Positions 8,070 through 31,008 of a stretch of DNA of 64,000 nt are shown here, piece after piece. How positions within the stretch are numbered: the first letter of the stretch is position 1; every line of letters begins with the position of its first letter. Under the pieces are notes generated by a model. The model was given only the letters and a program-made list of their open reading frames with translations, was not told where the DNA came from and ran no database searches. Both the position numbers and the translations under genes were made by a program. The stretch is taken from positions 5,657 to 69,656 of the forward strand of contig JAILES010000081.1 in the NCBI GenBank assembly GCA_024687205.1, read 5' to 3'. Origin of the DNA: Lachnospiraceae bacterium. GTDB lineage: Bacteria > Bacillota > Clostridia > Lachnospirales > Lachnospiraceae.

Positions 8070-8218
8070 CCGCTCTCTCCGCTTCCTTACCTTTCTGCAT
8101 ACTCCGACAGTTTAACCCTCCCGTCACCCGGCTGTCAATGCCGTGCACATCTCTTGTATGCAATCCTGCTTCCATGTGTTAGAATGGACAGGTATATTTC
8201 AAAGAGGTGAAGACAAAG

Positions 8219-9610: not shown

Positions 9611-9634
9611 GGATCCGAGGCTATTGGTTGACAA

Positions 9635-9661
9635 TTAGCACTCGTCTCTTGACAGTGCTAA
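9635..9661 (+). promoter_or_regulatory. CIRCE element (HrcA operator)
   Basis: TTAGCACTC-N9-CAGTGCTAA, one mismatch to the TTAGCACTC-N9-GAGTGCTAA consensus, upstream of clpB. Confidence 0.85.
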
Positions 9662-9677
9662 CAACGCGTGATATAGT
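9649..9677 (+). promoter_or_regulatory. SigA promoter of clpB overlapping CIRCE
   Basis: TTGACA (9649-9654), 17 nt with TG extension, TATAGT (9672-9677). Confidence 0.8.
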
Positions 9678-9741
9678 ATAGACGATCGCTGAGGCGGTCG
9701 TCTTTATTTATATACTACGAAGCCATAAGGAGGTGAGCTTT

Positions 9742-12324: not shown

Positions 12325-12338
12325 TGAACTTCACCGCA

Positions 12339-14129
12339 TCAGTAACGCGTCAGCAGATGATAGGGGGATTCCAGTTCATCGGCAACGAGCTGGATCCCCG
12401 TAAATCTGAGTGAACTTCCTATATTAGTCTTTATATCAAAGGTTACCGTAGTACCGTCAAAAGTATAATGGAAGGTTCCGTAATAATCCTGGCCCTGGGT
12501 TTCCAGCGTACAGCTACCGTCGGATTTCAAGTCGAGATAATACGGAACATTACCGTTCTTCCAGCGTCCCTCTACTTCGGAAAAATCAAATTCTTCACCC
12601 GGCTCCACATAGTCGGGATTTTTTTCGATCGTAACATCCGGTTCTTTCAGCTTCTTTTTTTCCGGCTGCTTTTCTTCGGAAGCATTCTCTTCTCCGGTCG
12701 TTTCCGCTTCGGGATCTTCTTCGGTATCATCCATGTTTACAACCGTCGCAGAGTCTCCGTTGCCGTCATAGTCTTTGTTTATGTATATGGCAGGACGTAC
12801 GCCGCGGGATTCGTCAACCTTATTGCCCGCAACATTAAGCCAGCCCGTTGCACCGAGGCTTGATACACAGATAGCGGTGTTCCCGGAAAAGCCCGGTGAA
12901 CGCAGCCACCACCAGGTACCTTCTTTGCCTATAAAACTTCTGTAGTTATTTACATCATAGGAATTCTGACGAAGGAAGTCCTCTGTGATCTCCTGGCCTT
13001 CTATACCCTGCTGCTTCGCATATTCCGTAGGTGCGATGATCAGGAGTTCACTGTTACCGTACCTGCGCCCCGTGTCATAATAATTGAATTCGTAATAAGT
13101 GATGACTTCTTCAGCACTGAGAAGGAAGACTTTATCGCTCGTGTCGTTGCCTCCTCTTGTTTCATACATCTCATTGTCGGGATTCTCGATCTCAACACTG
13201 TTGATGCATGCCTGCTCTCCTTCGGTAAAGGCGGAGTTTATGAAGTCATCATTAAGCCAGCTGCGAAGCGGTGAAGTTTCCCAGCTCACATCTTTTTGAG
13301 AATCATTATAGGGCTGTGCATCCAGCACATAACGGCTCACCAGCAGCGTGCCCTTTTCGTTCGAATCAAGCACATCCCATTCTATCGGTTCCGGACCGTT
13401 AGCAAGATCGCCGTCCTGCTCATATGCACCGAACTCGACATAGCCGTTCTTCATGGAAGGAAGGATGTCTGCACGGTCTGTCCATGCCCTGCTTGATACG
13501 GGAGTGATATTATCATCGACTACTTCAGCCGATTCACCCGCATTCAGATCAAGTGAATTCTTTCCTGCCTCCACATGCACTACACCCTTTGTTACGTCGA
13601 CTCTCGTCTTTGCCGCGGATTTATCATAGGCTACGTTAAAAGTTGTTCCCCTGACGCTACAGGTGGCATTCGGCGTCTTAATCTCAAACTCCGAATGCTC
13701 GTTTAATTTCTTATCTATCGTAGCCAGCGCACTGCCGTAATCCAGCTTGATCGTTACTTTTCCGTTGTTTGCGATACCTGTGGCCTTTAAGGAAAAACGC
13801 GTATTCTCGGATGCAACCAGTTCCTTATCCGAATCGATGAGCAGCATGAGCTTGCCGTCATTTCCCGTAGTTACACGGTCATCTGTAACGAGTTTCAGTC
13901 CTTCGAAAATATCTTTTTCTTTCCCGCTGCGTTCCAGATCCACTTTGCCGTTCCACTCTTCTACCTTGACCGAACGGAATCCTATCAGGCTGAAATACGC
14001 ATACACGCCCCCGCCGATCAGAGCGACAAACAGCAAAAAGAAGAAGAACCTCCGTATCGGATGCTTCTTCTTTTTCTTTTCTTTAGTTTCCTTAACTGCT
14101 TCGGTTTCGCCTGTCTTATTCTTCTTCAT
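12339..14129 (-). CDS. Membrane-anchored FecR-domain + DUF6273-domain protein
   Basis: Basic N-terminus + TM, FecR-like EIKTPNATCSVRGTTFNV, then EFGAYEQ..PIEW, W..S.LRSWLN..F, DKVFLLS, WWWLRSPG..GVRPA (DUF6273-like). Confidence 0.7.
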   Translation of the reverse strand: MKKNKTGETEAVKETKEKKKKKHPIRRFFFFLLFVALIGGGVYAYFSLIGFRSVKVEEWNGKVDLERSGKEKDIFEGLKLVTDDRVTTGNDGKLMLLIDSDKELVASENTRFSLKATGIANNGKVTIKLDYGSALATIDKKLNEHSEFEIKTPNATCSVRGTTFNVAYDKSAAKTRVDVTKGVVHVEAGKNSLDLNAGESAEVVDDNITPVSSRAWTDRADILPSMKNGYVEFGAYEQDGDLANGPEPIEWDVLDSNEKGTLLVSRYVLDAQPYNDSQKDVSWETSPLRSWLNDDFINSAFTEGEQACINSVEIENPDNEMYETRGGNDTSDKVFLLSAEEVITYYEFNYYDTGRRYGNSELLIIAPTEYAKQQGIEGQEITEDFLRQNSYDVNNYRSFIGKEGTWWWLRSPGFSGNTAICVSSLGATGWLNVAGNKVDESRGVRPAIYINKDYDGNGDSATVVNMDDTEEDPEAETTGEENASEEKQPEKKKLKEPDVTIEKNPDYVEPGEEFDFSEVEGRWKNGNVPYYLDLKSDGSCTLETQGQDYYGTFHYTFDGTTVTFDIKTNIGSSLRFTGIQLVADELESPYHLLTRY

Positions 14130-14648: not shown

Positions 14649-17600
14649 TTATTTCTTGTTTCCCGGCTGCAGACTTAAGCGTTTCTTTTCATCGGGTTTG
14701 ATCTCAGGCTCATTATTCTTGATGTTCACGCTCTTTCTGCCTTTGCGTTCATCCTTGTTTGCATTCTTTTCATCCTTTAACATCTGATCGAACTTGATGG
14801 AGCGTTTGCGTTCCTGTGCGGGCGCAACAGCGTTATTATCTATCACTTCAAATACATCTTCGGTCCTGAAGAGATGGTTCCACTGACGCCATTTCTCCGG
14901 ATCATCTGTTTTGGCAGCTTTAAGATTTATATTGGCGCCTCTTAAGTTCAGCAGATTGTCCCTTAAGAATGATGACCTTGACTTCTTATCGGCTGCATTA
15001 TGTGCGGGATCTCCGAACAGCTCCGGCAGTCTCTCGTTATCACGTCCCTCATCCAGCTGTTTAAGTCTTTCCTCTGCATATTTCTTCGGAAGCTTTCCGT
15101 CTTTGTACTGTTCCGAGATACTGCGCATCCTGCTGACTCTCAGGCTTTCAAGCTGCTTCTCGAGAAGTTCCCTTTCCTTAAGAAGCGCTGACTTCTCCTG
15201 AACAAGCGGCCTTCTTTCCTCATAGGCTTCCAGACCCATGATGTCATCAAGGGAAAGTCTTGCCCTGTGCATCTTTTCATCGGCTGCCGCGATCTTAACA
15301 TCCCTGCGACCTATACGCTCATTGACCTTCCTTATCTTTTCGTTAAGCTCCTTCATTTCGTCAACAAAAGTTTTTTCATCTTTCTTTACCTTCTTGGCGA
15401 TCTGATCTTCCAGCTTATCCATCAGTTTTTCGGAATTGTTCTTAAGCTCCAGATAATTCTTCTTTGTAGTTTCCAGCTGCTTCTTCTGCTCAGCCGTAAG
15501 TTCAGGCATATTAAGCTCAGGATTGTCTTTTCTCAGGGCCTCATAACGCTCTGCCATATTTAAGAGCTCGTTCTCCAGGTTTTTCACCTGCTGTGTTTCC
15601 TGATACTGCGGCTGTGTCTGCTTTAATATCAGCAGTTCCATCAGTGCCTGCTGACGGGCCTGTACCAATCGGAAGGGCTCATACACATTCGGATCAAAGC
15701 TCATACTGCTTATACCGGGATCCGTTGAAGTATTATCAGCTGCAGCTTCCATCCTGATCTGGGCTTTTGCAGCGTCTTTCAGTATCTTCTCCAGTCGTCC
15801 TTCCTGAGCTGTCAGGAACGGATCTTCGGCTCCTGCTGCTGCGTTTCCTGCTTTGCTCTTCAGATATTCGGCATAATTAAAGGGTTTTCTGTAGGAAAAA
15901 TCTGCATTATAAGGCACCTTCACCAGGATCACATCCGGATCGAATTCATTCTCGGGCATGGTTACCACTGCCTTAAGAGCATCAATGCTGTCCTTATCCT
16001 TTCCTTTAAAAGCGTCCTTCGTATGCATCACGTTATTCAGGGCCGTGACGCCGAACTGCGACACATAACCATATATATTCTGTCGGAACAGGTATCTGTT
16101 CTGTGATTTACGCGCAGGATCATACACTTCGGGTTCTGCTTCAATGATCCCTCCTATACTTCTGAGATACTTGCCCACCAGATTTGAGTTTTTGCTCGTG
16201 ATGACACCGTTATAGTATCCGTTTGCTGCATAAGCAGTCATCTCACCGATACTCTTACCTTTGCCCAAAGCCTTTAAGCTGGTGCCCTCGCTTATCGCTG
16301 TGGTCTTCATTTTTTCTATCATCTCATCGGGATGAGCAGCAAATTCATCTACGGAAATGTTATTTGCTTTCAGCATATTTCCGAACTGCCATACCGCATT
16401 AAGCTGGGAAGCACTTACTCTGTCACGGGCATAACGCCAGGGTATACCGTCTTGCCTTACATTATCAAGATTATCCATATAATCTTTACCGGAGAATGAG
16501 TTTTTCGCCATTCTCATCAGCTCATCAGTTTCTCTTTGGATGTTTTTCATCTCGTCCACTGCAGTACTCAGTTTTTTGCGATTGGCTTCGACACTCATAT
16601 CTGCCTTGAGTGCTTCCGCAACAGCCTTTTGTGCATCGGCCACTCTGTGGAACGAGTATATCTTCGATGTTTCCTCTGCCGGTGAATTCGGCTTGAACAA
16701 TTTCATTTCTTCCATCTTTTTAAGGATTGCTGCCACGTTCTGTACATATCTCGGATCCAGAACCGGATTCACTTTTGAAGTACGGCGCACATCCTCTGCA
16801 CGATCTTCCTTTGTAACCGTTATACCCTTTCTGGTCTCATACAGGTCCTGCATGAAACTGTTTTCTTCCTTTTCACTTCCTTTTTTATGGTCGAGATCTA
16901 TGACTGCATTATAACGTTTTGTATCTACCGTCATCAGCTCGAGGTCTGCATTCTTAACTGCCGGTTTTGCTTTTGTGATAAGGCCGTTGGCCTCGTAAAG
17001 AACATTCCTGAACTCATCAAGTTCTTCCTGTGTTCCTCCGCCACTCATCTTTTTCCAGTCGTCACCGGCCTCTTTCAGCATCTCACGCACCCTGCCTGCC
17101 TGGGGATGATCCACCTGGCTTTCAAATTCCAGTGCATTTTCCAGACTGTCATCCGGCATGCTGCTGAAATCATATGACCTTATGGGCTTATATGCATTGT
17201 CAAGATCAATGAGTCTGTCACGTTCTTCTTCCGGAAGACTTGCGACCACGGCTGCAAAATAATGCTCTCTGTCTTCTGATGTCAGTCTGCCGAGCAGAGA
17301 AGAGTCAGGTACCGAATTCTTAAGCTTGGTAAACAGCGCGGCTGCTTCATTAGCACCCAGTGTATCCGTGAGCACATTCAGCAGTGTGTCTGCCGATATT
17401 GATTTTTTGATCTCTTCATACAGATATCTGTATCTGTCTTCCGCATCGTTCTCATTGATCCTTGCCGTACGATAAGCCTCCGGCTCCGAAAGATCGGTTT
17501 TATCGGTCCTCATTGTCTCGCTTACCGCAATCGTATCCTGTCTTTCGTTAAAGCGCTGTATCAGCCTCTGTGTGAGTTCCTCGGGAAGAACCCTTGCCAG

Positions 17601-20600
17601 ATTCTCATTCCTTAAATTGATCTGTCTTGCATTCTCTTCCTGCCGGCGTGCCAGCTCCTGCTGAGCCTGCTGCATTCTCTCTTCTCTTTCCTGCTGCAGT
17701 CTTTCAAGTTTTTCGAAAGGATCCTCGTTCTTCTCAAGTTCCAGAAGTTCTCTGATCTTCCGCTCATCATGCTCATAAGGTCTCGTGGTGAGTTCTTTGA
17801 TCTCCTTAGCCTCCTGAAGACGTCCCGCATGAGTATTCTTTCCGCTCTTATCCTGCAGTCCGTATTCAGGCATTTTTGCACTGTCGGTATCCTTAAGAGC
17901 CAGTATTTCAGAGATCCGCTTTCTTGCATAATCCGTAGTCACGTTGCCTGCCTTAGTCTGTTCAATGAGCCAGCTTCTCATGTTACTTACAAGAACCCTC
18001 TTTTGATCGACCATAAAGCTGACATGAGCATTATTATGCTCGGCTGCAGCCTCCTTACGCTCGGTCTCAAGCAGGTTATAGCTGTTTACGAAGCGCTCCT
18101 CTTCTCTCTTCAATTCATTGTTCAGTTCAGTGACGTGCTGTGCCGTATGCCTCTCGGCAACGCTGTTTGCATTCTTTCTTTCTTCTATCGCATGCTTCTG
18201 TTCAACTGTCAGCTTGCTCTCGGCAGCATTCATCTGAGTTTTGAACTGTTTTGCGTTTTCTTCAAAAGTCTTCCTCTGCTCATCACTGAGTGCCGGCAGA
18301 GCATACTCAGGATGTGCCGCACGGATCTGATCATAATACTGCGCCGCATTCATTATCTCGTCTTCCAGCAGATCAAAGCCCGGCTTTCCCCTGTCAGCCG
18401 CACGCTTGACCAGGAGCATTGAAAGTGCAGCCTGTCTGTTCATCATGAAGGAAACGGCGCCGAATTTTTTGCCTGCGATATTTCTGGCATCGCGGAGTAT
18501 CTCATCGGCTCTGGTGCTCAGAGCACTGTAGCCGTTATAGTGAGGTCCGAGACCTGCAACATAATCCGCTGCCGTGATCTTCGGAACAGGTCTTCCGTTC
18601 GCATCAAGCGGCTTATTTGTCAGCATTCTTCCTCTGTTGTTTTCAAGGTCTGCCATATCCACGATGGAAAGCAGCTGCTGTACTTCGTTTTTACGCTCCT
18701 TATTCCTATAAGGATTGTTGTTCACATGATGCAGCAGTACATTCGCACGGAACTGGTCACGTATCTTATAGTTTGTATAATTCTTCTTCCTGCGCTCCGG
18801 ATCATCGTCCATCATCGTGAGCGCTTCTTCGATACGTGTCAGGTTTGCCTGTATGCCCATGACTTCTGACTGGAAAGCACCTCTTTCAAAGTCGTCTTCA
18901 TTGCCGAATTCTCCGAGTATCTGTCCCGCACTCTTATTACGCAGTCTTATCTCCGGATCGCACATTTCCAGATTTTTCCTCACAACAGTCTCAATGAAAG
19001 CATTGGGATCTTCCTTAAACTGCTGTATGCTTACACCGCTCCACTTCAGTGCCGAGAATAACAGATGCACGGAATTGATCTTGCTGTTGTTATAATAATC
19101 CTTTGCGTATTCAAGCGGTACGTTAAGCTGACGCGTCGCGTCGATATTTCCCGCAACGCTGTATTTTGAAAAGTTCTTTTCATCATCCGCAAAGGCAAAC
19201 AGCTTATCCATATCGGCTCTTGCTTTTTCATAATTGCGCTTTGCGTTGATTATGGCCTGACGGTCTCCGTTATTTACGGCATCGATGAGTTCATATCTTG
19301 TCCTGCTTACCTCCGCAAAGCCTCTGGACTCAACTGTACCTCCGGGGAAATCATTGCTCATCTGCATACCCATCTCTTCCATCATGGTAAGCATTGTGGC
19401 AAAACTGTTGAGATTGTTTTCGCCCAGCCCAAGCTTGAGGTCCATCATCTTTTCAAAGCCGTCCTCAAGTACCGGAGATATACCGTTTGCGACAAAGTCC
19501 TCAGCGTTGGACATAAGGTCATTGACCACCTGCTTAAGCTCAATATCTTCTATCTCGTTAAATCCGTCGGCAAGATCTTTCTTTGAAGAATCACCTGCGA
19601 CCTCTTCCTGTATCCTCCTGTGTGAGAAATACTCATCCTTAACATGCGGATCTGCAAGGGTCACAAATTCATCAGCATACTCAAGCGCCTCAAGGTATTC
19701 ACGTTTTTCATTTTCGTTCAGTGTATCATCTGTCTTAAGTCCTTCCCTAAGCTCTTCGACTCTGTCATGAAGAATGTGACTTACCTGCTCATCAAGCTCC
19801 AGCTCCGTAAGCGTCTTTGTTTCAAGCATCTCCTTTTTAAGTCTCTGCTTATCATCATGGTAAAGGCGGTCACTTATCTCCTTAAGAAATCCATGACATT
19901 CTTCCGGTGTAAGACTGTCTGTAAGTCTTACATTTATCTTTGCGCGGATATCTGCCGGATTAGTCAGTGTTTGTACCGCTCTTGCCAGATTCTCCTGATA
20001 CCAGTCGGGCCATTTTGTTCTGATCCTCTCCAGCAGTTCTTCGTTGGACATAGTAGCCGTCACTGTTCTTACTACGCGGTTATAACGGTTCATCGCAGTA
20101 GTATATTCAATACCGCGCTTCACTATCTTCTGTATCATTTCCGGAGAAGTATCAGCTTTTATTTCCTCATAGGCTGTTTTTGCCTTAGCCATCGAATCAT
20201 AATCCAGCTCCGCGATCTGCTTTACGCTTCGCTTCATGAGGTCATCATCATCGTTTATCCTGTTGATCCTCTGAACCTTCCCCTTCTTTTGTTTTTCTGC
20301 AACATCCATGTCAGCCCTGCGTTCTTCCATGATACGCTTTCTCTCGTTTTCGAAAAGGTCTGTCACGCCATCCGCATAGAGATCCTCAGAAGGCTTACCG
20401 TCCCTTCTCTTCCCGCGCTCAGCTGTTACTTTCTCCTGTGCGGCTTTCTGTGTCTGTACTCTTTCATCGTGGAGCCTCTGTCTTTCGGTAATGATATCTT
20501 TTGCTACCAGCTTTCCGTCTATCTCCAGCACTTCCAACGCAACAGGGATATTTTCCTTGTAGATATCCTCCAGTTCGGCTTTATTTCCCGCATACCGTGC

Positions 20601-23600
20601 AAACAGATAATCCCTGTTCATATAACGTCTGCCGTTTATCACTATCGCCAGATGATCCTTCAGGTAATTGTTGACGTACTCTTTTTCCTGCTGCATTCTT
20701 TCGGCTTCCTGCCGTTTTCTTTCGGCTTCCTGCTCGGCCTTCTGCAGTTCAAGCCTTCGTTTGGTCTCAAAGTCAACATAGGCGGTATGTGCACTTCTCA
20801 TATGACGCAGCTGATACTGCATTTCAGCGAAGCTGTCATAGATACGCTGTTCCTTATCCGAAAGCTTTTTGCCGGTTCCGTTATCAAGCTTGTCCACGGA
20901 ACGGCCTACCTGCTGTACTAGTTCCTGCGAATCCTTTACAAGCTTGTCAAATGCCGCTTTCCTCTGTTCCGCATTAGCCGGATTCAGATAGTCGGTGTTC
21001 GAATAGAAATCATTTATCTGTGAGATATAGCTGTCCAGATCTCTCAGAGTCTTACCATGTACGGCATCGGAGCTTAAGCCCTCTTTTAAGAGACGTCCGC
21101 GCATCGTCATCAGCGCGCCTACACGCTCGGTATTTAAGAAGGCTCGTTCTATATCAGTCTGCGGTCCTCCTACGGTAGGCGCATCAGGGTTCGCGGAATT
21201 CTTACGCGCCTGATAACGCTGATACTCTGCCCTTGCCTCAGTTAATTCCTGCGCAGATAGAAATTCCTCGGGAGCAGGCTTTCTTGACTTTGCTTTATTC
21301 ATCCTTTCACGGAGTTCCTCTACTTCATTAAGATCTCCTCCGGCTATATCAGGCGAATAGAAGGCCTCTCCGTATCCTTCCATATACTCAAACATCCTCT
21401 GCCTGTCAGCAGGGCCTGTTATCGGAGTTTCTTCAAGCTTTTTGATGATATCGTCCATCACCTTTAAGGAACGGTTTCTCTCATCAAGCCACTGCCTGTC
21501 ATTCTTATCCTTCTTACTCTCGATCGTGTGCTTCAACAGCCTGCGCTGCACATATATAGTGCTCAATAAATTGATATCTTCAATGGGCCAGCCGTTTGCA
21601 AGCATGGCTCTCTTTCCTTCCATATCAGTCCATGCTTCTCCCGAACCCCTGGGGAAATGTGAAGATACTTCATAGAGTTCATTATGCAGATATCTCGGAT
21701 GTTCACTGTTGTCCCTCATTTTTCTTGCATATTCTTCTTCGGGAGTTCCCGGTATCCTGCTCTTAAATGCTACATCATCTATTCTGCGAAGACGTTTTTC
21801 AAGCTCATCCATTTCCGAGATCATCATCTTTCTGAGCATACGGTCGTCAGTATTGCTGAGTGTGCCGTCTTTCTTCATACGCTCATGTTCTGACATGATA
21901 ATTGCCGATCTCTTAGCTGCAAAAGCAGCCTGGGGCAGTTCAAGAGCAGGACTTCCCGCAGGATAGCCGATACATGCCAGTATCAGATCGTTGGTGAAAT
22001 CGGGAGAGTTTGCATCGATCTTGTCGGCATCGACAGCCCCGAGTCCTCCTAGCTGTCCGTATACTATCATGAACAGATTATTATTGAGTTCCATATCCAT
22101 CCAGGTGAGACCATCATCTTCCGTTCGCAGATAATCGGCATATACTCTCATGTAATCGGCATATACCGGATTGATCTTCTCCCAGCGGTCAGCGGTTTCA
22201 TAAAGCTTTTCTTTTGACCTCTTAAAGAAATCTTTTACAGCAGCAAGATTCTTCTTTCCTTCCTCATTAAGACTTCCGTCTGCCTTAGTACCTACGAGAT
22301 AATTGTACTGGATAGGCTGTTCCTTTGCTGTTATAGTCGACCATGCCCTCAGTCTGTCAATATCCTCAAAGGGCACTTCATCCCTGTCCTCATCATAAAA
22401 GAGATTCTTTATTATACCTGACGCCACCATGCCGTTTGTCTCGTCCTTGACTGCTTCCCTGGCTTTTTCATCTGTCATCAGGGTCCGGTAATTCACCGAC
22501 GGATCAAAGGAGACTATAGCCGGGAACTGGCAACGCAGTTTGAACAAAGCGGCGTAATACTTACCGCCCTCATTCTCCGGATTCGAAACTCTGATACGGG
22601 CATTATTCTTAATACGTTCCGCATAAGCAGGTTTGGCATCAAGAGGAATCGGCTTATCCTCCACCATGTTGCCGTTCTTATCCATCATATACGGAACAAA
22701 ACTCAGCTTCTTTGCGGGGTCGGCCATGGCCGTCATTATCGTTGCTTTTATAACCGTATCCAGATACTTCTTATCCGGATTCTGTGCTATGGCAGGATAT
22801 CCGTTGGCCGCCAGGTATTCCAGAGGCTTCTTTCCGTCTATGCGGAAACGGTCTGTCAGCGGTTCGCCTCTTCTCATACAGTAATCGTACTGTTTTCCGT
22901 ATCTGCTGCTGCCGGTCAGATGTCCGAGGACACGGTCAAAGGTCTGACGTGTTTCCTTCTGCTGTGCATCGGTAAGCGCATTAAGATCGGGCAGAGTCTG
23001 GGGCACTTCGGTAAGTTTTCCGCGCTGATCCCTTGCCTGATGCGGCATATGTATATAGCTTAAGTTAAACACCGGTGAGGTATCGAGATTTCCCTTCTCG
23101 ATAGTCTCCCTGTGGGCAGCGCTTTCCTTACCCGCCTCGGTTGCACGGTGTTCTCTCAATTTCTCATTTACCTTATCAAGATAAGGCTGCTTAAAAGGTG
23201 ACGGAGCGTTTCCGTCAATGTATGCTTTCAGCTCCGCATCCGTCGGTATGTTTTCCTTCGGAAGCGCCAGCATCGGATCCAGCAGGAAGCTGCCTATCGA
23301 AACTGCATCTATTGCCGTACCGGGTCTTACGCCACCCGGAGCTTTCATGAGTTTATCGATTTCCTGCAGATAATATTTCGCCAGTGCTCTATGCTGCAGA
23401 CTGTACATTTTATCGGACATGACTATCGTAGAGAGCATCTTCATACCCTGCAGTACATCCAGGGGCTCCCTCAGTTTTGAATACTCTTCCGTGCTTCCGA
23501 ACTCATCGATATAAGCCTGTCTTAAACGGTTGGGTTTCTTAGAGTCATATACAGGCGAATACTGGGAGAATAATTCAGTATTCTGCATGAAATCCTGAGC

Positions 23601-26600
23601 GTAAACTGCTTTGGAATAAAGTTTTGAACCTCCCTTTGTCAGTTTCTGTATATCGGCTGTTCCGTTAAAATCCAAGCCCTCATAAGCGGACATCTTAAAC
23701 TTCGTCATGGCTTTCTTATGGATATCCGCATAATAACGTGCACTTGCCTCGGCTGTGGCATCATCAACATCCGGTCCGAAAGGATGCCTCTCGAGATCAT
23801 CCATATATTTATCCACCAGCTGTCTCCTGGCATCCAGCGGCAGGCTGTTAAGTTTCAGCACATCATCATAGGTATTAAAGTTAAGGCTATGCTCCGTCGT
23901 TACGGTCTTTATCACTCCCTTTTCATCCCTGACGGGGTTGCCGTAGGCATCCGTTTCATTCTCGGTCACGGTATAGGTACATGAACCTTTACCCAGATAA
24001 TATGTACGCAGATCATCCATCATTCGCGCCGGAGCATCTTTTTTAAACATATCCGGAGTCACGCTCGTGTTTATTCTTCCCATGCGCTCAAGTACATCCT
24101 GAGCATCAAAATATCCGGGTACCTGAATACGGAGCTGCTTCGCCTCCATAGACTTCGCTTCCTTATCGGCAAGATCTTCCATAGAAGGAACATTGCCTGT
24201 CTTATAGAAGGCATCATCCTTTTCAAAAAGATCCAGCAGGGCTTCACCCATTTCCTGCTCTCTCTTCTGAGCCTCAAAGGCATTCCTTACAGCTCTGTAC
24301 TCATCGGAATATGCACCCCTGTTAAATCCTATCTCGGGAATATCGTGGTGTATCTCTCCTGCTCTTTCAAGAAGAGCAGCGAGCTGTTCGACATTTTTAA
24401 ATGATGATAGCTGCGGCGTATGGGACATAGCTTTTATCATCTGCGCTTTAAGGGTATAGAGCTGGCCCTTATCCGGCATGTCCGCATTTGCAGCTGTTTC
24501 ATTGTAAAGTGCCGAGCCATGATTATGGATGAAATTAAGCGCAGCCATCCTGTCGCCGGCATTCATTACCGGATGTGAATCAATGTAACGGCATATCTCA
24601 TCCATGGTACCGAAGGCTGTTTCAAGCTCCTGACGTTCCCTGCTGCCTTCTTCTTTATCCGCAATGGCATCCTTAAGCAGCTGACGCTTAGCATAGAAGG
24701 ACGCTATCAGATCCGTATCCTCAACCGGCCAGCCCATAGTGATGGCTGACTTTCTTCCTGCCAGATCCGCAAGCATCATCTTCGATCCGGGTTCCCCGTT
24801 TACGAACTTCTTCACCGCATCGGGTGATGTGAAGATCTTTGAAAGCTCCTGTTCCCTGTTCATCGCGCCTGCATTCCGACGCATCTCATTTATGCTGTTT
24901 TCCAGTGCATTGATCGAGTTCAGGATATCCAGCTTGGTATTAAGATCATCCGGGTTTGCTTTTCCTTCCTCACTGAATTTAAGGGCGGCTCTCATCCTGC
25001 TGTTAAGCTCCAATGCTGCATTAGCTGCTCCGGTCAGCGGGAAGGTTTTTCCCATACCCGCTTCATCGGTAAGTGTTCCGAAAACGGTATCCACTCCTTT
25101 GCTCATATCAAGAGAATCAAGCATGTCATCAAGCAGCTCGCAGTTCGTATTCACATACAGCCTGCCCTTTTCCTGTTTCTTTATATCAGCAAGTCTGAGA
25201 TTCTGTACTTCAGCAAACTGCTGCATTGCCTTATTGCGTTTTGCATCCGGCAGATCCTCATCAACGGCACCGGGCTTTACCGTCTGAAGCTGTGCACGTA
25301 TCTTTTCAGCCTTTGCTGACTCAGCTTTAATATAATCCTCATCGCTTACGGGCTTTGTGTGCTCAGCGGGATTCATCTGATAGAAGGGCTGCACATAAGC
25401 TTCGTATATCACTTCGGCATCCGCTGCCGGCTGTCCTGCAGGAAGCAGAGCCTTAAACTGTTCCTGCTGCTCAGGGGCATAGAACAGCTCCGGATCGATC
25501 ATTGCCTTCATGGCTTCATCCATCTGTGTCTTAAGCGCTGTCAGCTGTCCTTTGTCTGCCATACCTGCTGTGGCTACCGTATCGTTATACAGTGCAGTAC
25601 CGTAACTGTTTATGAAGTTTAAGACATCCTTTCTCTCCTGTGCGCTGCTGATGGGATGTGCATCAAGATGCGTACAGATCTCATTTACCGCACGGAATCC
25701 ACGTTCATACTTAAGTCTTTCAACTGAACCGGGAACCTTGCTTTCCGCTGCTGTCTTCAGCATCTCGCGTTTTACATAGAAGGATGCTATCAGATCCACG
25801 TCACGTACAGGCCAGCCGTTAGCCAGCGCTTTCTTTTTCGCACTCAGTTCCGCAAGCATGGTTTTTGATCCGGGACAGCCGTTTATAAAACGGTCAACTT
25901 CCTTCGGATCCGCAAATGCGGATTCAACCTGTCCTCTTGCATTTCCGTTTGCGATATTGCTGCGCATGGTACGTATCTGTGTTTCCAGCAGATTCATCTT
26001 TTCTATGAGCAGTTTGCGATTATCTGCTTCGGCTGCTTTCAGTTCATCGCCGGACTGAGACCTCATGGTATTCTGTATTTTCTGTATCTCGCCGGCTGTC
26101 TGAGCCGCTTCGATAATAGGGAAATTCCTGAGTCCCTCAAATACCTGCGAGGGCGTACGCTTTGCACCTGCCTCAAGATTAAGCTTATCCGTCAGGGCAT
26201 TAAGGGCGCTGAAACTGTAGTTTCCTTCCTTTCCGCCGAGTCCGTGCAGCACTTCATTTCTGTTTATCTGATATCTTACAAAGGCAGCCTCCTGCAAACG
26301 CCCCTGCTTTTCAAGACCTGTAGCCAGCACGGAAGCGTCATTAGCAAGCTGCTCCCTGTATTCTTTCTTTATATAGTCCTCACCGTCCAGACCGTCTATG
26401 ATAAAATCACTGCCTAATTCCTTCATCCTGTCCAGATGCGCGTCAAGATAATCAGCACCGAAGGATCTGAATACGCCGGGCATGAAAGCATTAAGCTGGG
26501 AAGCTCCCTTCTTTATCGCATCATAAGCAGCCTCTGCCTGCTCCTTTTCATTCAGAGGCTTTACCGCAGACATCTTCTCCATATGAGGCTTTGCCTTGGG

Positions 26601-29279
26601 TATGATCCTGGGTTTCTGTTCCACTATATTCAGAGCCTTATCATAGGTATATGCCACAAAAGAAAGCTCCGCTTGTGGATCAGCCATGGCTTCCAGAAGA
26701 AGGGTTTCCATTGCGGTCTCTCTATCTTTTCCTTCAAGCCCGGGATACTTACTGGCAACTATCTCGGATATCTTCCTTCCGTTAATGCGATAACGATCCA
26801 TTGGATCTTCATTCTTTAATCCGGCCAGATCTGCCTGGAAGGTATAGCTGCTTATCATAGGCCCAAGCAGCTGCTGGAAGCAGGTATGTATCGCCTTTTT
26901 CTGTGCATCACTGAAGCCTTTGATATCCTCGGCCGTGATGTCTTTCTGAGGTACTTCTCTGAGGTCCACGAAGTCCAGATTATATACTCTCGCAAGATCG
27001 ATCTCCCGCTTATTGTAGTTTCCGAACATTGTTCTTACTTCTTCGGCAGCCTCCTCGGCCATCCACTCTTTTGCAGGGACTTCAATATTCCTGTGCAGGT
27101 ATTCTTCGGTAAAAGGTGAGGGACCCTTGCCTTCGAGATAGTCCTTCATTGCAGCATAGGAAGGCGCTCCCTCCATCGGGAGCTTTTTATCCTCTTCGAT
27201 ACTCTCGGAAATAACTTTGGTAACGCTGCGCATATAATGCCAGAGCGAAGGATCGATCTCTTCCGGTTTTTTCCCTTTGATATTACTATAGATGTTCTCC
27301 AGATAAGTAAGGGCAAGAGCCTGTACATGAACCGGGTATTCCGGACTGCTTGCCTTAACAGACAGATCCTGCAGCTGGTTCAGTACCTGCAGCTGTCCCA
27401 TCATTTTTGCATACTCTCTTCTTCCTCCGAAGGCGTCAAGATAAGCCGCTTCACCCTTGCTGTTCATGACACTCTTGGACATGATATTGGAAATATCCTG
27501 GGTACAGTCCATTACAAAATGAGCCATCATGCCGAGTTCATTTTTCTGTCCGGCTGTTGCTTTCAGCTCTTCGGGATTCCTCGGATCAAAATCAGGTATG
27601 GGATTTGAAAGGATGCTCTTTATTGCCTTCGCATCTTTGTTTCCGTACCAGGCTGCATTATTTTCCACTACCGACTGCGGCAGATCCGTACTCATGACCG
27701 GATGTGCCGCATAGGCTTCAAAGAATTCCTTTGCAAGCGCTTTGCGTTCTTCATCGCCCGCCTTCTCCAGCTCTACCGCTTCCATGAAGCTGAGTCCCTT
27801 CTCAGCCATTATGTATCTCAGCATATCACTGTATGCGCTTAAATCTCTGCTCAGTTCGCCGCTTGCTTCTGTTGCCGCTTCCCGCTCCGCCTTCAGCTCA
27901 TCATAGAACCATCTGTTTTTCAGTTCCCTGATATCATAGAGCCTGTTATCTCTCTCCCGGGCCTCTTCGGCGGCAGCCTGCTGTACCGGTCCCTCCTCCT
28001 GCTGGGGTGCATTTGCGGCCGCTTCCCTCTCTTCATCAAACTGTGATATCATCTGACCTAAGTCGGCACTTCCCATCAGGTCTTTTTCTTCCTGAGGAAG
28101 CTTCCTTTCAAGAATACGGTCAAAGGTATAGAGGCCGAATTGCATGCCTGAATCCTGTGTCATCAGGAACTTCTTCTCATAGCCCTCTTTCACCAGCTCC
28201 CGCATTTCCGTAAGCAGCGCTTTCCTCTCTGCCTCTGTCCTTATTACCTTGGTCTCTATCTTCTTCCATGCAGTATCCAGTTTCTTAAGATACTCCCTCT
28301 CACCGGGCCTGAAAATCGGTTTTTCTTTAGCTTCTCCGGTGCTTGTGTTGTAATATGCTTCCGAGAAGAGATTTTCTCTTGCGATCTTAAAGAATGAAAG
28401 GGCATTCAGATCCTCTATAGCCCAGCCATTACGGATACCGCTAACCCTGGCTTCTATATCGGCACGGACCGTTCCGAGCCCTCTTAAACCGTTACGCTGC
28501 AGCGTTTCCACGGAGTTGGATATATGTTTGTTTATCTCTGCGGCTTCGGGCGAATTGGGCACAACCTTATCCATCTTTTCAAATGCATCCAGCATTCTCT
28601 GCCCATGATCAAGTATATCTTTTCTCAGCTGCAGATCCTTCTCTGCCGTAAGCGTCCCCTTATCCAGCTCATCAAAATACTCCAAATGGGAGCCGATGGT
28701 TTTATTGCACTCTATCATGGCCTTTGTTATGGGATACTTTTCATCAAGTATGCGTATATCTTCCCTTGTTTTGTCTTTGAGTACTATAGGCATGGAAGTT
28801 ATCATTCCTGCAGTCAGACGTCTGGTATTCAGTCTCAGATCGACTTTGTTGACCGTCCATCCCCGTACTGCTCTTTCTGCCGGATCGATCATTACAGCAT
28901 TAATAACATCCCTCATCGAATCGTCACCGGGCTGATAGAAGTCATCCAGCTTCTGCTTGACCTTTTTTACATAATTACCGAATCTTTTCTTATATCCTTC
29001 AACATCAACACCCTCACGGAAAACTATTGCCTTGGCGGAGACTGACGATATACAGGGACGTGAGGTTCCGTTTTCACCTCCGAGATCATATATCTCTTTT
29101 CTTCTCTGCATTGACGAGGGATCTCCGTAAAGGAAGATCGCATCCTCGGATAACATCTCCTCCGGACCCGCGGAATTGCCGGCAGATACCCAAAATTCTC
29201 CAACATCATCAAAAATGCTTTCTTCGAGCTTTTTCACCGTATCCTTATCGAGTTTATTGTTTTCGATCTTTAAATTCAT
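14649..29279 (-). CDS. Giant 4876-aa highly charged, predicted alpha-helical protein with internal repeats; function unknown
   Basis: 14.6-kb uninterrupted ORF with RBS AGGAGG. No signal peptide or TM segment evident. Repeated GW[PA][IV][ER]D motif x4 and duplicated blocks. Confidence 0.9.
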   Translation of the reverse strand: MNLKIENNKLDKDTVKKLEESIFDDVGEFWVSAGNSAGPEEMLSEDAIFLYGDPSSMQRRKEIYDLGGENGTSRPCISSVSAKAIVFREGVDVEGYKKRFGNYVKKVKQKLDDFYQPGDDSMRDVINAVMIDPAERAVRGWTVNKVDLRLNTRRLTAGMITSMPIVLKDKTREDIRILDEKYPITKAMIECNKTIGSHLEYFDELDKGTLTAEKDLQLRKDILDHGQRMLDAFEKMDKVVPNSPEAAEINKHISNSVETLQRNGLRGLGTVRADIEARVSGIRNGWAIEDLNALSFFKIARENLFSEAYYNTSTGEAKEKPIFRPGEREYLKKLDTAWKKIETKVIRTEAERKALLTEMRELVKEGYEKKFLMTQDSGMQFGLYTFDRILERKLPQEEKDLMGSADLGQMISQFDEEREAAANAPQQEEGPVQQAAAEEARERDNRLYDIRELKNRWFYDELKAEREAATEASGELSRDLSAYSDMLRYIMAEKGLSFMEAVELEKAGDEERKALAKEFFEAYAAHPVMSTDLPQSVVENNAAWYGNKDAKAIKSILSNPIPDFDPRNPEELKATAGQKNELGMMAHFVMDCTQDISNIMSKSVMNSKGEAAYLDAFGGRREYAKMMGQLQVLNQLQDLSVKASSPEYPVHVQALALTYLENIYSNIKGKKPEEIDPSLWHYMRSVTKVISESIEEDKKLPMEGAPSYAAMKDYLEGKGPSPFTEEYLHRNIEVPAKEWMAEEAAEEVRTMFGNYNKREIDLARVYNLDFVDLREVPQKDITAEDIKGFSDAQKKAIHTCFQQLLGPMISSYTFQADLAGLKNEDPMDRYRINGRKISEIVASKYPGLEGKDRETAMETLLLEAMADPQAELSFVAYTYDKALNIVEQKPRIIPKAKPHMEKMSAVKPLNEKEQAEAAYDAIKKGASQLNAFMPGVFRSFGADYLDAHLDRMKELGSDFIIDGLDGEDYIKKEYREQLANDASVLATGLEKQGRLQEAAFVRYQINRNEVLHGLGGKEGNYSFSALNALTDKLNLEAGAKRTPSQVFEGLRNFPIIEAAQTAGEIQKIQNTMRSQSGDELKAAEADNRKLLIEKMNLLETQIRTMRSNIANGNARGQVESAFADPKEVDRFINGCPGSKTMLAELSAKKKALANGWPVRDVDLIASFYVKREMLKTAAESKVPGSVERLKYERGFRAVNEICTHLDAHPISSAQERKDVLNFINSYGTALYNDTVATAGMADKGQLTALKTQMDEAMKAMIDPELFYAPEQQEQFKALLPAGQPAADAEVIYEAYVQPFYQMNPAEHTKPVSDEDYIKAESAKAEKIRAQLQTVKPGAVDEDLPDAKRNKAMQQFAEVQNLRLADIKKQEKGRLYVNTNCELLDDMLDSLDMSKGVDTVFGTLTDEAGMGKTFPLTGAANAALELNSRMRAALKFSEEGKANPDDLNTKLDILNSINALENSINEMRRNAGAMNREQELSKIFTSPDAVKKFVNGEPGSKMMLADLAGRKSAITMGWPVEDTDLIASFYAKRQLLKDAIADKEEGSRERQELETAFGTMDEICRYIDSHPVMNAGDRMAALNFIHNHGSALYNETAANADMPDKGQLYTLKAQMIKAMSHTPQLSSFKNVEQLAALLERAGEIHHDIPEIGFNRGAYSDEYRAVRNAFEAQKREQEMGEALLDLFEKDDAFYKTGNVPSMEDLADKEAKSMEAKQLRIQVPGYFDAQDVLERMGRINTSVTPDMFKKDAPARMMDDLRTYYLGKGSCTYTVTENETDAYGNPVRDEKGVIKTVTTEHSLNFNTYDDVLKLNSLPLDARRQLVDKYMDDLERHPFGPDVDDATAEASARYYADIHKKAMTKFKMSAYEGLDFNGTADIQKLTKGGSKLYSKAVYAQDFMQNTELFSQYSPVYDSKKPNRLRQAYIDEFGSTEEYSKLREPLDVLQGMKMLSTIVMSDKMYSLQHRALAKYYLQEIDKLMKAPGGVRPGTAIDAVSIGSFLLDPMLALPKENIPTDAELKAYIDGNAPSPFKQPYLDKVNEKLREHRATEAGKESAAHRETIEKGNLDTSPVFNLSYIHMPHQARDQRGKLTEVPQTLPDLNALTDAQQKETRQTFDRVLGHLTGSSRYGKQYDYCMRRGEPLTDRFRIDGKKPLEYLAANGYPAIAQNPDKKYLDTVIKATIMTAMADPAKKLSFVPYMMDKNGNMVEDKPIPLDAKPAYAERIKNNARIRVSNPENEGGKYYAALFKLRCQFPAIVSFDPSVNYRTLMTDEKAREAVKDETNGMVASGIIKNLFYDEDRDEVPFEDIDRLRAWSTITAKEQPIQYNYLVGTKADGSLNEEGKKNLAAVKDFFKRSKEKLYETADRWEKINPVYADYMRVYADYLRTEDDGLTWMDMELNNNLFMIVYGQLGGLGAVDADKIDANSPDFTNDLILACIGYPAGSPALELPQAAFAAKRSAIIMSEHERMKKDGTLSNTDDRMLRKMMISEMDELEKRLRRIDDVAFKSRIPGTPEEEYARKMRDNSEHPRYLHNELYEVSSHFPRGSGEAWTDMEGKRAMLANGWPIEDINLLSTIYVQRRLLKHTIESKKDKNDRQWLDERNRSLKVMDDIIKKLEETPITGPADRQRMFEYMEGYGEAFYSPDIAGGDLNEVEELRERMNKAKSRKPAPEEFLSAQELTEARAEYQRYQARKNSANPDAPTVGGPQTDIERAFLNTERVGALMTMRGRLLKEGLSSDAVHGKTLRDLDSYISQINDFYSNTDYLNPANAEQRKAAFDKLVKDSQELVQQVGRSVDKLDNGTGKKLSDKEQRIYDSFAEMQYQLRHMRSAHTAYVDFETKRRLELQKAEQEAERKRQEAERMQQEKEYVNNYLKDHLAIVINGRRYMNRDYLFARYAGNKAELEDIYKENIPVALEVLEIDGKLVAKDIITERQRLHDERVQTQKAAQEKVTAERGKRRDGKPSEDLYADGVTDLFENERKRIMEERRADMDVAEKQKKGKVQRINRINDDDDLMKRSVKQIAELDYDSMAKAKTAYEEIKADTSPEMIQKIVKRGIEYTTAMNRYNRVVRTVTATMSNEELLERIRTKWPDWYQENLARAVQTLTNPADIRAKINVRLTDSLTPEECHGFLKEISDRLYHDDKQRLKKEMLETKTLTELELDEQVSHILHDRVEELREGLKTDDTLNENEKREYLEALEYADEFVTLADPHVKDEYFSHRRIQEEVAGDSSKKDLADGFNEIEDIELKQVVNDLMSNAEDFVANGISPVLEDGFEKMMDLKLGLGENNLNSFATMLTMMEEMGMQMSNDFPGGTVESRGFAEVSRTRYELIDAVNNGDRQAIINAKRNYEKARADMDKLFAFADDEKNFSKYSVAGNIDATRQLNVPLEYAKDYYNNSKINSVHLLFSALKWSGVSIQQFKEDPNAFIETVVRKNLEMCDPEIRLRNKSAGQILGEFGNEDDFERGAFQSEVMGIQANLTRIEEALTMMDDDPERRKKNYTNYKIRDQFRANVLLHHVNNNPYRNKERKNEVQQLLSIVDMADLENNRGRMLTNKPLDANGRPVPKITAADYVAGLGPHYNGYSALSTRADEILRDARNIAGKKFGAVSFMMNRQAALSMLLVKRAADRGKPGFDLLEDEIMNAAQYYDQIRAAHPEYALPALSDEQRKTFEENAKQFKTQMNAAESKLTVEQKHAIEERKNANSVAERHTAQHVTELNNELKREEERFVNSYNLLETERKEAAAEHNNAHVSFMVDQKRVLVSNMRSWLIEQTKAGNVTTDYARKRISEILALKDTDSAKMPEYGLQDKSGKNTHAGRLQEAKEIKELTTRPYEHDERKIRELLELEKNEDPFEKLERLQQEREERMQQAQQELARRQEENARQINLRNENLARVLPEELTQRLIQRFNERQDTIAVSETMRTDKTDLSEPEAYRTARINENDAEDRYRYLYEEIKKSISADTLLNVLTDTLGANEAAALFTKLKNSVPDSSLLGRLTSEDREHYFAAVVASLPEEERDRLIDLDNAYKPIRSYDFSSMPDDSLENALEFESQVDHPQAGRVREMLKEAGDDWKKMSGGGTQEELDEFRNVLYEANGLITKAKPAVKNADLELMTVDTKRYNAVIDLDHKKGSEKEENSFMQDLYETRKGITVTKEDRAEDVRRTSKVNPVLDPRYVQNVAAILKKMEEMKLFKPNSPAEETSKIYSFHRVADAQKAVAEALKADMSVEANRKKLSTAVDEMKNIQRETDELMRMAKNSFSGKDYMDNLDNVRQDGIPWRYARDRVSASQLNAVWQFGNMLKANNISVDEFAAHPDEMIEKMKTTAISEGTSLKALGKGKSIGEMTAYAANGYYNGVITSKNSNLVGKYLRSIGGIIEAEPEVYDPARKSQNRYLFRQNIYGYVSQFGVTALNNVMHTKDAFKGKDKDSIDALKAVVTMPENEFDPDVILVKVPYNADFSYRKPFNYAEYLKSKAGNAAAGAEDPFLTAQEGRLEKILKDAAKAQIRMEAAADNTSTDPGISSMSFDPNVYEPFRLVQARQQALMELLILKQTQPQYQETQQVKNLENELLNMAERYEALRKDNPELNMPELTAEQKKQLETTKKNYLELKNNSEKLMDKLEDQIAKKVKKDEKTFVDEMKELNEKIRKVNERIGRRDVKIAAADEKMHRARLSLDDIMGLEAYEERRPLVQEKSALLKERELLEKQLESLRVSRMRSISEQYKDGKLPKKYAEERLKQLDEGRDNERLPELFGDPAHNAADKKSRSSFLRDNLLNLRGANINLKAAKTDDPEKWRQWNHLFRTEDVFEVIDNNAVAPAQERKRSIKFDQMLKDEKNANKDERKGRKSVNIKNNEPEIKPDEKKRLSLQPGNKK

Positions 29280-29382
29280 CTGATCTTCCTCCTATCGGGG
29301 TGTTTTTCAAATTTATCTCCATTATACATGCCCGGTGTAGCAAAAGTGAAACACCCTTACTATTATACCACAAAACAGTCCT

Positions 29383-29432
29383 ATCAGGGGGACGGTTCTC
29401 CGGTTGACCTGTTTTGTCAAACCGGGGATTTC
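29383..29432. repeat. REP-like palindromic element
   Basis: ATCAGGGGGACGGTTCTCCGGTTGAC-CTGTTTT-GTCAAACCGGGGA. Confidence 0.75.
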
Positions 29433-29442
29433 ATATTATAAT
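29414..29442 (+). promoter_or_regulatory. SigA promoter of the ECF operon; -35 lies in the repeat arm
   Basis: TTGTCA (29414-29419), 17 nt, TATAAT (29437-29442). Confidence 0.7.
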
Positions 29443-29533
29443 CAGTTGGTTTGAATTTTATATATTTTTTTTGTAACGGATTGTTTATTTTATGCACTAA
29501 CTATACAGAGGCGCCCGGAAAGGAGGTGAGATC

Positions 29534-30013
29534 TTGCAGTCCATGGACGAAATATATCAGAAGTACGCGAACACGGTATACAAATACCTGATGTCGCTGA
29601 CCCATAAGGAAGAACTGGCCGAAGAATTCACCCAAGAGACCTTTTATCAGGCTGTCCGCTCCATCGGCAGCTTTGAGGGAAAATGCAGGATCTCCACCTG
29701 GCTCTGCGCGATAGCCAAAAACCTGTATTTAAGCTATCTTCGTAAAAACCCCGAGCATGAGGATATCGATGAACAGGATATCACCGTCGCCTCCGCAGAG
29801 AACACGGCTCTGGAGTCTCTGAGCCGGGTAGAACTGCTTAAAAAGCTGCATAAGCTCCCCGAGCCTTACCGGGAAGTCACTTATCTTCGAGCCTTTGGCG
29901 GCCTGTCTTTTGCAGAGATCGGCGAGGTACTGGGTAAGACTGAGAACTGGGCCAGGGTCAGTTTTTACAGAGGAAAAGAAAAACTCAGAAAGGAAGTGGA
30001 TAAAAATGAATAA
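29534..30013 (+). CDS. ECF RNA polymerase sigma factor
   Basis: TTG start after AGGAGGTG. Region 2 (AEEFTQETF..STWLCAIAKN) and region 4 (LPEPYREV..LSFAEIGEVLG..W.RV.FYRGK). Confidence 0.92.
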   Translation: MQSMDEIYQKYANTVYKYLMSLTHKEELAEEFTQETFYQAVRSIGSFEGKCRISTWLCAIAKNLYLSYLRKNPEHEDIDEQDITVASAENTALESLSRVELLKKLHKLPEPYREVTYLRAFGGLSFAEIGEVLGKTENWARVSFYRGKEKLRKEVDKNE

Positions 30014-30983
30014 GATTCCGTGCGAAGTTATAAAAGATCTGTTCCCTTCATATATAGACGGATTAACAAGTGAAAGGACTAATCAGCTCATAGAAGAACA
30101 TATAGCAGAATGTCATGAATGTACTGAAGTGTTACGCTCCATGCGAGGTGATACTGAGGATACCATTCTTCCCGGTGAAGACGACCGTAAGGAGATAGAT
30201 TTTCTGAAAAAAACACGACTGATGCAGAAGATCGCATTTATCAGCAGTATGGCAGCTATCATCATGGCAGCGCTTTTCGTTATCATACGTGTATTTATTG
30301 TAGGCAGTTCGTATGACGGGACGATGTACATTGTAAATAATGTCAGTGTGGATGAAGGATTTCTGCGCTTAAACATAAGCACTTCAGACAGCGCAACTGT
30401 CCTTTCACGTGTTAAATGCAATGAAGAAGACAGTGTTGTGACAATAAAAGCCAATTTAGTACCTGTTTCGATATTTAAGCGTGCCAGGAGCGAATATGCT
30501 TTTAAGCTTTCAGATCCTGCTACAATAAAGCAGGTTAAGATCGGCAATCAGGTGATCTGGGATGATGGTGAGACTATCTCTCCTCTTGCTTCACTGGTAT
30601 ATGCAAGCAGACATGACTATATCGGTGATATGTCCGCAAACGGTAAAAGTGCCAATGCGATCGGTGTATACACACGTTTAGGCGAATATGAGAATCAGCT
30701 TGAGACTGCCGCTGAACCTTACGGCTGGATCATCAGACCAAAGAACGATATCCCTTCCGGAAAAGCCGTGCTTACGGAAAGCGACATGGAGTCAATGGCT
30801 TATGTTCTGATCGGAGTCATCGCTAATCTTGACCATGTTACCTACGAGTATACCGTAGACGGTGAGACCCGTTCAATGAGTTTTACAATTGATGATGCCG
30901 ATGCTTTCTTCGGCCGCAGCATCAAGGACTGCGGTAAGAGCGCCCGCGTTCTTAACGAACTGATAGAGAAAACCGGATTCTGA
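30006..30983 (+). CDS. Anti-sigma factor: zf-HC2 + TM + extracellular domain (DUF4825-like)
   Basis: Starts MNKIPCEVI, HIAECHEC zinc motif, single TM, overlaps the sigma stop codon. Confidence 0.85.
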   Translation: MNKIPCEVIKDLFPSYIDGLTSERTNQLIEEHIAECHECTEVLRSMRGDTEDTILPGEDDRKEIDFLKKTRLMQKIAFISSMAAIIMAALFVIIRVFIVGSSYDGTMYIVNNVSVDEGFLRLNISTSDSATVLSRVKCNEEDSVVTIKANLVPVSIFKRARSEYAFKLSDPATIKQVKIGNQVIWDDGETISPLASLVYASRHDYIGDMSANGKSANAIGVYTRLGEYENQLETAAEPYGWIIRPKNDIPSGKAVLTESDMESMAYVLIGVIANLDHVTYEYTVDGETRSMSFTIDDADAFFGRSIKDCGKSARVLNELIEKTGF

Positions 30984-31008
30984 AGTCACTTTACCATTCT
31001 CAGTGTCA

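Follow-up and report, generated by a model that had tools for sequence, protein, structure and literature searches.

The window analysed here, 64,000 nt of contig JAILES010000081.1 from a Lachnospiraceae bacterium (assembly GCA_024687205.1), encodes on its minus strand a protein of 4876 amino acids (aa), hereafter the giant, which stands behind a promoter element that recurs in a chromosomal type IV secretion system (T4SS) cluster. Judged from the sequence relationships set out below, the odds that the giant is cargo of this T4SS, that is, an effector, appear about even.

The regulon promoter consists of the 18-nt element GYTTCRCTTTTGCTACRY, followed after 7-10 nt by a TATAAT-like box. The element matches exactly upstream of the giant and is conserved upstream of its orthologues in L008 and L009; the upstream consensus of the three close orthologues reads GTTTC(A/G)CTTT(T/C)GCTAC(A/G)C, then 8-10 nt, then GTATAAT. 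The whole genome of the window (G000, 94.7% complete) contains six exact sites, and 11 when up to one mismatch is allowed, compared with a mean of 0.13 sites and a maximum of two for 60 column-shuffled control motifs. These sites lie 60-100 nt upstream of open reading frames (ORFs), correctly oriented and each accompanied by a -10-like box. The genes behind them are the giant, its 1658-aa paralogue on contig C134, four signal-less orphans (2220, 1876, 1164 and 485 aa) and two small genes, while three sites (47699, 50535 and 65399) fall inside the T4SS cluster on contig C119. Among the five larger proteins besides the giant, only the C134 protein is related to it (through modules Ca and Cb), and Pfam scans of two of the five, the 1876-aa and 1658-aa proteins, returned no domain. 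This arrangement suggests that the element marks co-regulation of the giant with the T4SS cluster, within a small, lineage-specific regulon that would comprise the cluster, the giant, the paralogue and the other Lys-tailed, signal-less orphans.

The C119 cluster encodes a VirD4-like coupling protein (T4SS-DNA_transf, PF02534; Cag5 in the PDB, 1.8e-5) and a VirB4-like ATPase (PF12846; PDB 4AG5, E 2.7e-44), together with partners. Across 45 species of the genus, multiple copies of the motif (11, 17 and 8 sites) are confined to the three giant-bearing genomes; the motif is missing from 40 genomes and present once in two, the level of a reversed-pattern control. Each of the three has one site just upstream of the giant and, upstream of the gene for the coupling protein, a pair of sites separated by about 2.8 kb. 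The same three genomes encode orthologues, at 70-72% identity, of a 963-aa protein from the C119 cluster, and nine other genomes of the genus hold only relatives at 33-47%. The motif, this T4SS variant and the giant share an identical pattern of presence and absence (three of 45 species). All 45 genomes have a PF02534 gene, so the presence of a type IV coupling protein (T4CP) does not discriminate by itself. Nearly every species of the genus also has a coupling-protein-like gene of about 500 aa (PF02534; e.g., G000:C27:30787-31863), distinct from the copies of integrative and conjugative element type and of C119 type, which may be a conserved chromosomal orphan T4CP. Four giant-bearing metagenome-assembled genomes (MAGs) of other genera carry tandem homologues of the 963-aa T4SS protein at 30-37% identity, which lends the link weak support, since genomes without a giant have such homologues too.

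A promoter common to the giant and the T4SS genes, together with matching distributions, would also be expected if the giant were an accessory of the apparatus or of a surface structure built by it, such as a fibre, an adhesin or a mating-pair stabiliser, rather than a translocated effector, and its elongated, repetitive build is like that of giant adhesins. However, the gene lies far from the cluster on a different contig, the protein has no cell-wall anchor, LPXTG motif or transmembrane segment, and both promoter and tail are shared with several unrelated orphans, a pattern more like a cargo set than machine parts. An accessory role is distinctly unlikely.

For the giant as cargo, we infer the following route. 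A regulator reading the 18-nt element would switch on the T4SS machine and its cargo together, the coupling protein would recognise the positively charged C-terminus of the giant as a secretion signal, and the T4SS would export the giant, or hand it to a target cell, on which it would act as an effector. The Lys-rich tail, already pointed out in the preliminary description, holds up (Table 1), and five of seven motif-driven orphans have 7 or more Lys among their final 30 residues, compared with 3.5% of G000 ORFs of at least 300 aa. No known T4SS signal domain is recognisable in the giant. The role of a non-Sec-secreted effector, which the preliminary description had listed as a candidate, gains genuine support from the promoter element shared with the T4SS cluster and the Lys-tailed orphans and from the co-occurrence in three of 45 species.

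Legionella and Coxiella effectors of the Dot/Icm system are regulated by PmrA. The system described here resembles such specialised T4SS effector regulons (Dot/Icm, the Bartonella VirB/VirD4 Beps and the Xanthomonas X-Tfe effectors): dispersed signal-less genes share a promoter element with machine genes, architectures are modular and fast-evolving, and the C-termini carry positive charge, a trait of many T4SS substrates (the Bartonella Beps, for instance, combine a BID domain with a charged tail; PMC8714903). It differs in its host, a single-membrane rumen commensal, in the 556-kDa size of the candidate cargo and in having no recognisable signal domain of the BID, XVIPCD (carried by X-Tfe effectors; PMC8740702) or E-block type. 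With Gram-positive conjugation-type T4SSs, the cluster shares a VirB4-like ATPase (4AG5 being that of Thermoanaerobacter pseudethanolicus) and a VirD4-type coupling protein, whereas no PF03432 relaxase, the sole relaxase family searched, was found in G000. Unlike in ordinary conjugative elements, the promoter of the cluster is shared with large orphan proteins elsewhere on the chromosome.

Several points weigh against export. The shared promoter indicates likely co-regulation rather than secretion, and Lys-rich tails are a weak, non-specific signal. The three giant-bearing species probably form one clade, so one event in their evolution may account for the three-of-three co-occurrence. No copy of the motif was found upstream of giants from other genera or of genes of the small family, and the promoter link is therefore seen in this lineage only. 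In addition, the T4SS cluster may belong to a conjugative element, PF03432 being the only relaxase family covered. At 556 kDa, the giant lies far above any T4SS substrate known to us and would, if exported, be by far the largest. Two other export routes were considered and rejected: a type VII secretion LXG/WXG substrate, as WXG100 and YukC are absent from G000 and the giant has no LXG match, and cargo of a contractile injection system (PVC/eCIS), as the sheath gene PF04984 was not found in G000.

T4SS protein export is well studied in Gram-negative pathogens and, to our knowledge, hardly documented in single-membrane bacteria, while rumen and gut Lachnospiraceae carry many huge genes of unknown function. 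Here, a T4SS cluster and a specific group of orphans, signal-less and Lys-tailed, are connected by a short promoter element; the giant is the largest of these orphans. If this link holds, candidate effectors of a commensal's T4SS are thereby named, the regulon can be traced by sequence, and a new all-helical family becomes available for structural work.

The giant gene is a single unbroken ORF with an ATG start and 4876 codons plus a stop, making up 23% of the window, as first described. Ten full-length relatives (26-66% identity) align with it end to end without stops, indicating that selection maintains this frame and that the ORF is not there by chance. The protein has a mass of 555.9 kDa and a pI of 5.44, and consists of 9.7% E, 9.4% A, 8.7% L, 8.3% K, 7.5% D, 6.6% R, 3.6% M and 0.29% C. 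Its N-terminus (MNLKIENNKLDKD...) is polar, with no signal peptide, and no transmembrane-grade segment is present (the highest 19-residue Kyte-Doolittle mean is 1.43). Searches of Pfam (nothing but noise at E <= 1), PHROGs, NCBIfam, PADLOC and PDB sequences gave zero matches, in agreement with the earlier statement that signal peptide, transmembrane segment and known domain are all lacking. A multi-domain defence protein had also been suggested, here weighed as an anti-phage or anti-plasmid one. Such a protein would suit the patchy distribution and the turnover of paralogues, both typical of conflict genes, but PADLOC is negative, the giant has no ATPase, nuclease or sensor domain and it does not lie in a defence island; the suggestion is thus left without support and a defence role is very improbable.

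The description of the giant as an orphan no longer applies, as full-length orthologues, distant giants, a family of about 700 aa and the 1658-aa paralogue all exist. MAGs of rumen Lachnospiraceae encode two full-length orthologues (66% and 61% identity), and giants of 3459-4863 aa align over the whole query length at 26-40% identity. A module-A profile run against 1.84 billion representative proteins retrieved 89 clusters, which also include many proteins of 700-1200 aa and a group of 1.6-2.6 kaa; word-index homologue searches were insensitive, and alignments A4 and A3 gave few proteins. Among 185,579 species genomes scanned, giants occur in rumen Lachnospiraceae/Butyrivibrio MAGs only. A search of 400 other Lachnospiraceae genera gave one weak match to the family, and no member was found in 399 sampled Clostridia genomes or in two scans of viral contigs. 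The family is therefore rare and, as far as searched, limited to rumen Lachnospiraceae. Some genomes carry several members: MAG RUI086 has three giant loci (L011, L012 and L014), RUI297 has two (L015 and L016), and RUI489 has two family members in tandem (L013:9692-23602 and 23640-30992). The patchy distribution, multiple paralogues per genome, module shuffling and kinase-loop relatives (see below) are traits that fit a conflict or effector family.

The architecture of the giant was resolved by chunked BLASTP, profile-profile comparison and hidden Markov model searches (Table 1). Module A is present four times, module B twice, and a C unit of about 900 aa twice in tandem. Module A has invariant G, GW, D, R and Y positions; distant giants hold three A modules, the extra copy A3 being found only in this clade. 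The family of about 700 aa (alignment A5) matches residues 12-372 of the giant (hhalign probability 99.8-99.9), so the N-domain plus module A form the family core. These shorter relatives likewise have basic tails, and 51 small members scanned with Pfam show no credible domain. In one other Lachnospiraceae genus, two ORFs (G311:C131:12400-12810 and C132:7942-8445; L041 and L042) match only the C-terminal half of the roughly 700-aa family (the ESxEHK...GKxRLxGA region), so this half is a mobile module in its own right.

Table 1. Positions of the giant, its modules and its promoter in the window, and of the other element-driven proteins in G000
Feature	Position	Strand	Remarks
Giant coding sequence	14649..29279	minus	4876 aa, 556 kDa; stop codon 14649-14651
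Lys-rich tail, last 30 aa	14652-14741	minus	7 K, net charge +5
C-terminal region, residues 4630-4876	14652..15392	minus	ends in Lys-rich tail
C unit 2, residues 3701-4629	15393..18179	minus	tandem duplicate of C unit 1 (hmmsearch, hhalign)
Module Cb (last part of C unit 1), residues 3286-3700	18180-19424	minus	best conserved module of the family
C unit 1, residues 2820-3700	18180..20822	minus	long helical stalk with small beta tip, then helical domains
Module A4, residues 2446-2690	21210..21944	minus	residue 2501 onward modelled with high confidence
Module B2, residues 1806-2290	22410..23864	minus	
Module A3, residues 1382-1650	24330..25136	minus	extra copy, clade-specific
Module A2, residues 1025-1290	25410..26207	minus	
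Module B1, residues 502-960	26400..27776	minus	
Module A1, residues 182-380	28140..28736	minus	bears RG...GW..D..R..Y signature
N-domain, residues 1-181	28737..29279	minus	hhalign; modelled at low confidence
Shine-Dalgarno AGGAGG	29288..29293	minus	8 nt 5' of ATG
-10 hexamer TATAAT	29321..29326	minus	same promoter as the 18-nt element
Regulon promoter element GTTTCACTTTTGCTACAC	29335..29352	minus	overlaps -35 position; -10 box 8 nt on
Element-driven proteins besides the giant (2220, 1876, 1164, 485, 1658 aa)	C93:9468, C42:38317, C103:130983, C123 (motif 52985-53002), C134 (L049:5397-10460)	minus (C123, C134)	

Modules are shuffled between family members. The 1658-aa paralogue in G000 combines modules Ca and Cb, and module Cb recurs in relatives of 2.3-2.6 kaa beside a PI3/PI4-kinase-like catalytic loop (GNVDRHPGN...IDND), for which the Pfam cut-off of 27.1 bits is exceeded in two distinct clusters (28.8 and 29.1 bits). 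The kinase-loop relatives P0074, P0087 and P0088, with the loop pattern GNxDRHxGN...IDND, are metagenome proteins with modules A and Cb, and two of them exceed the Pfam gathering cut-off. The giant itself has neither this loop nor any recognisable catalytic domain. The kinase-bearing relatives hint at contact with rumen eukaryotic cells and make such targets conceivable. In a wider proposal, tentative and rather doubtful, a non-conjugative T4SS resident in a single-membrane gut or rumen commensal would have the giant and the other regulon proteins as its cargo, and the targets could be rumen eukaryotes (ciliates, fungi) rather than bacteria.

Domain-wise structure prediction with Foldseek comparison, the check proposed in the preliminary description, gave a confident AlphaFold model of residues 2501-3700 (mean pLDDT 86.5, pTM 0.62), based on a 28-row alignment of orthologous and paralogous segments. 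It shows packed helical domains and a single long stalk, also helical, that ends in a small beta tip. The helices number 60, just two of them longer than 60 residues, and the model also contains small beta elements. Foldseek against the PDB reached a best E of 0.3 with template-modelling (TM) scores below 0.12, and against BFVD a best E of 2.4e-3 with a TM score of 0.07, to long helical phage proteins; the predicted fold of this segment has no relative in either database. Residues 1-1040, modelled from three sequences, are all-helical at a pLDDT of 45, a level at which a Foldseek search is meaningless. The family profiles A4 and A5 found no significant match among PDB sequences, and profile matches to plectin and to an intermediate-filament family orphan were not significant. 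The protein family and its fold are undescribed. Both models are almost wholly helical, which bears out the helical character predicted earlier, but not a coiled coil throughout, since mostly packed helical bundles with few very long helices are seen. A cytoskeletal protein of the Scy/FilP/intermediate-filament-like class was rejected, as the model of residues 2501-3700 shows no long continuous coiled-coil rod of the kind that would make up most of such a protein.

The scaffold role, also among the earlier candidates, has to be weighed: the giant may be a cytoplasmic structural protein that is switched on with the T4SS, for example in a mating, attachment or developmental state, and is not exported. 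The all-helical modular build, the acidic pI and the lack of a signal peptide, transmembrane segment or conserved catalytic motif are consistent with such a role, and the size of the giant seems hard to reconcile with passage through a T4SS channel. However, a housekeeping scaffold would not usually show so patchy a distribution with paralogue turnover, unrelated orphans of the regulon have the Lys-rich tail as well, and some relatives carry the PI3/PI4-kinase-like loop; a scaffold role is unlikely.

Polymorphic toxin systems (PMC3482391) share with the giant family a conserved N-terminal unit followed by varied downstream modules, and in L012 the giant directly follows an Ntox11-domain gene. 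The giant was nevertheless rejected as a polymorphic toxin: its C-terminus is conserved among orthologues rather than polymorphic, no known toxin domain is present, and no conserved immunity gene lies 3' of the giant, where the downstream genes differ. The Ntox11-domain protein of L012 (L012:7539-9770) is a signal-less protein of 743 aa encoded 35 nt upstream of a 4780-aa giant; it shows no relationship to module A, and G000 lacks a homologue of it. Ntox11 has been linked to PVC-type injection systems (PMC3482391). By the 5-kb mark for giant bacterial genes (Reva and Tummler, as cited in PMC10756260), the giant gene is far oversized, and it is internally repetitive and Cys-poor like the giant genes of that account; it is neither a beta-rich, Ig-repeat surface adhesin nor a non-ribosomal peptide synthetase or polyketide synthase, but an all-alpha, signal-less protein with no fold match.

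The neighbours of the giant in the window are housekeeping genes, namely the Suf system, ClpB, a GH25 muramidase, a FecR-DUF6273 protein, an extracytoplasmic function (ECF) sigma/anti-sigma pair, NadE and a PPDK-like gene. As noted at the outset, no mobile-element genes were seen among the flanking genes. A polyvalent phage or conjugative-element protein was rejected on the basis of these neighbours, the lack of Pfam or PHROG matches and the two negative viral-contig scans. The survey of homologues and their surroundings, likewise proposed beforehand, found giants in rumen Lachnospiraceae whose neighbour genes differ between loci, so that no operon partner is conserved. In sister species, gene order around the sigma/anti-sigma pair is not preserved and the HD-domain gene occurs as numerous paralogues, making an empty-site comparison uninformative.

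A GH25 muramidase gene lies immediately 3' of the orthologue in L002 and also near the giant in the window. Together with the lack of a signal peptide, this would suit a toxin freed by cell lysis or a holin-like route, as large clostridial toxins are, with the T4SS link reflecting only co-regulation. However, this GH25 neighbour is not retained in L001 or beside other giants, no holin was seen, and the giant has no glucosyltransferase, C80 protease or CROP domain, so that lysis-mediated release is highly improbable. Membership of the large clostridial toxin class itself was rejected, since Pfam and PDB sequence searches gave no GT44 glucosyltransferase, C80 protease, delivery or CROP domains. 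The GH25-ClpB-FecR/DUF6273 block (window 8207-14129) is inverted at L002:16910-22825, in the genome bearing P0003, and the giant adjoins the block in both.

A repetitive extragenic palindromic (REP)-like element, GGTCAACCGGAGAACCGTCCCC, lies at window 29383-29407, with the regulon promoter on one side and the divergent ECF sigma gene on the other, and a string resembling it, GAGAACCGTCCCC, occurs upstream of the giant in L016. Elsewhere in G000, a second signal-less orphan giant of 3415 aa (C88:97052-107299; L050) has no Pfam match and no motif site upstream, and is dissimilar to the giant of the window.

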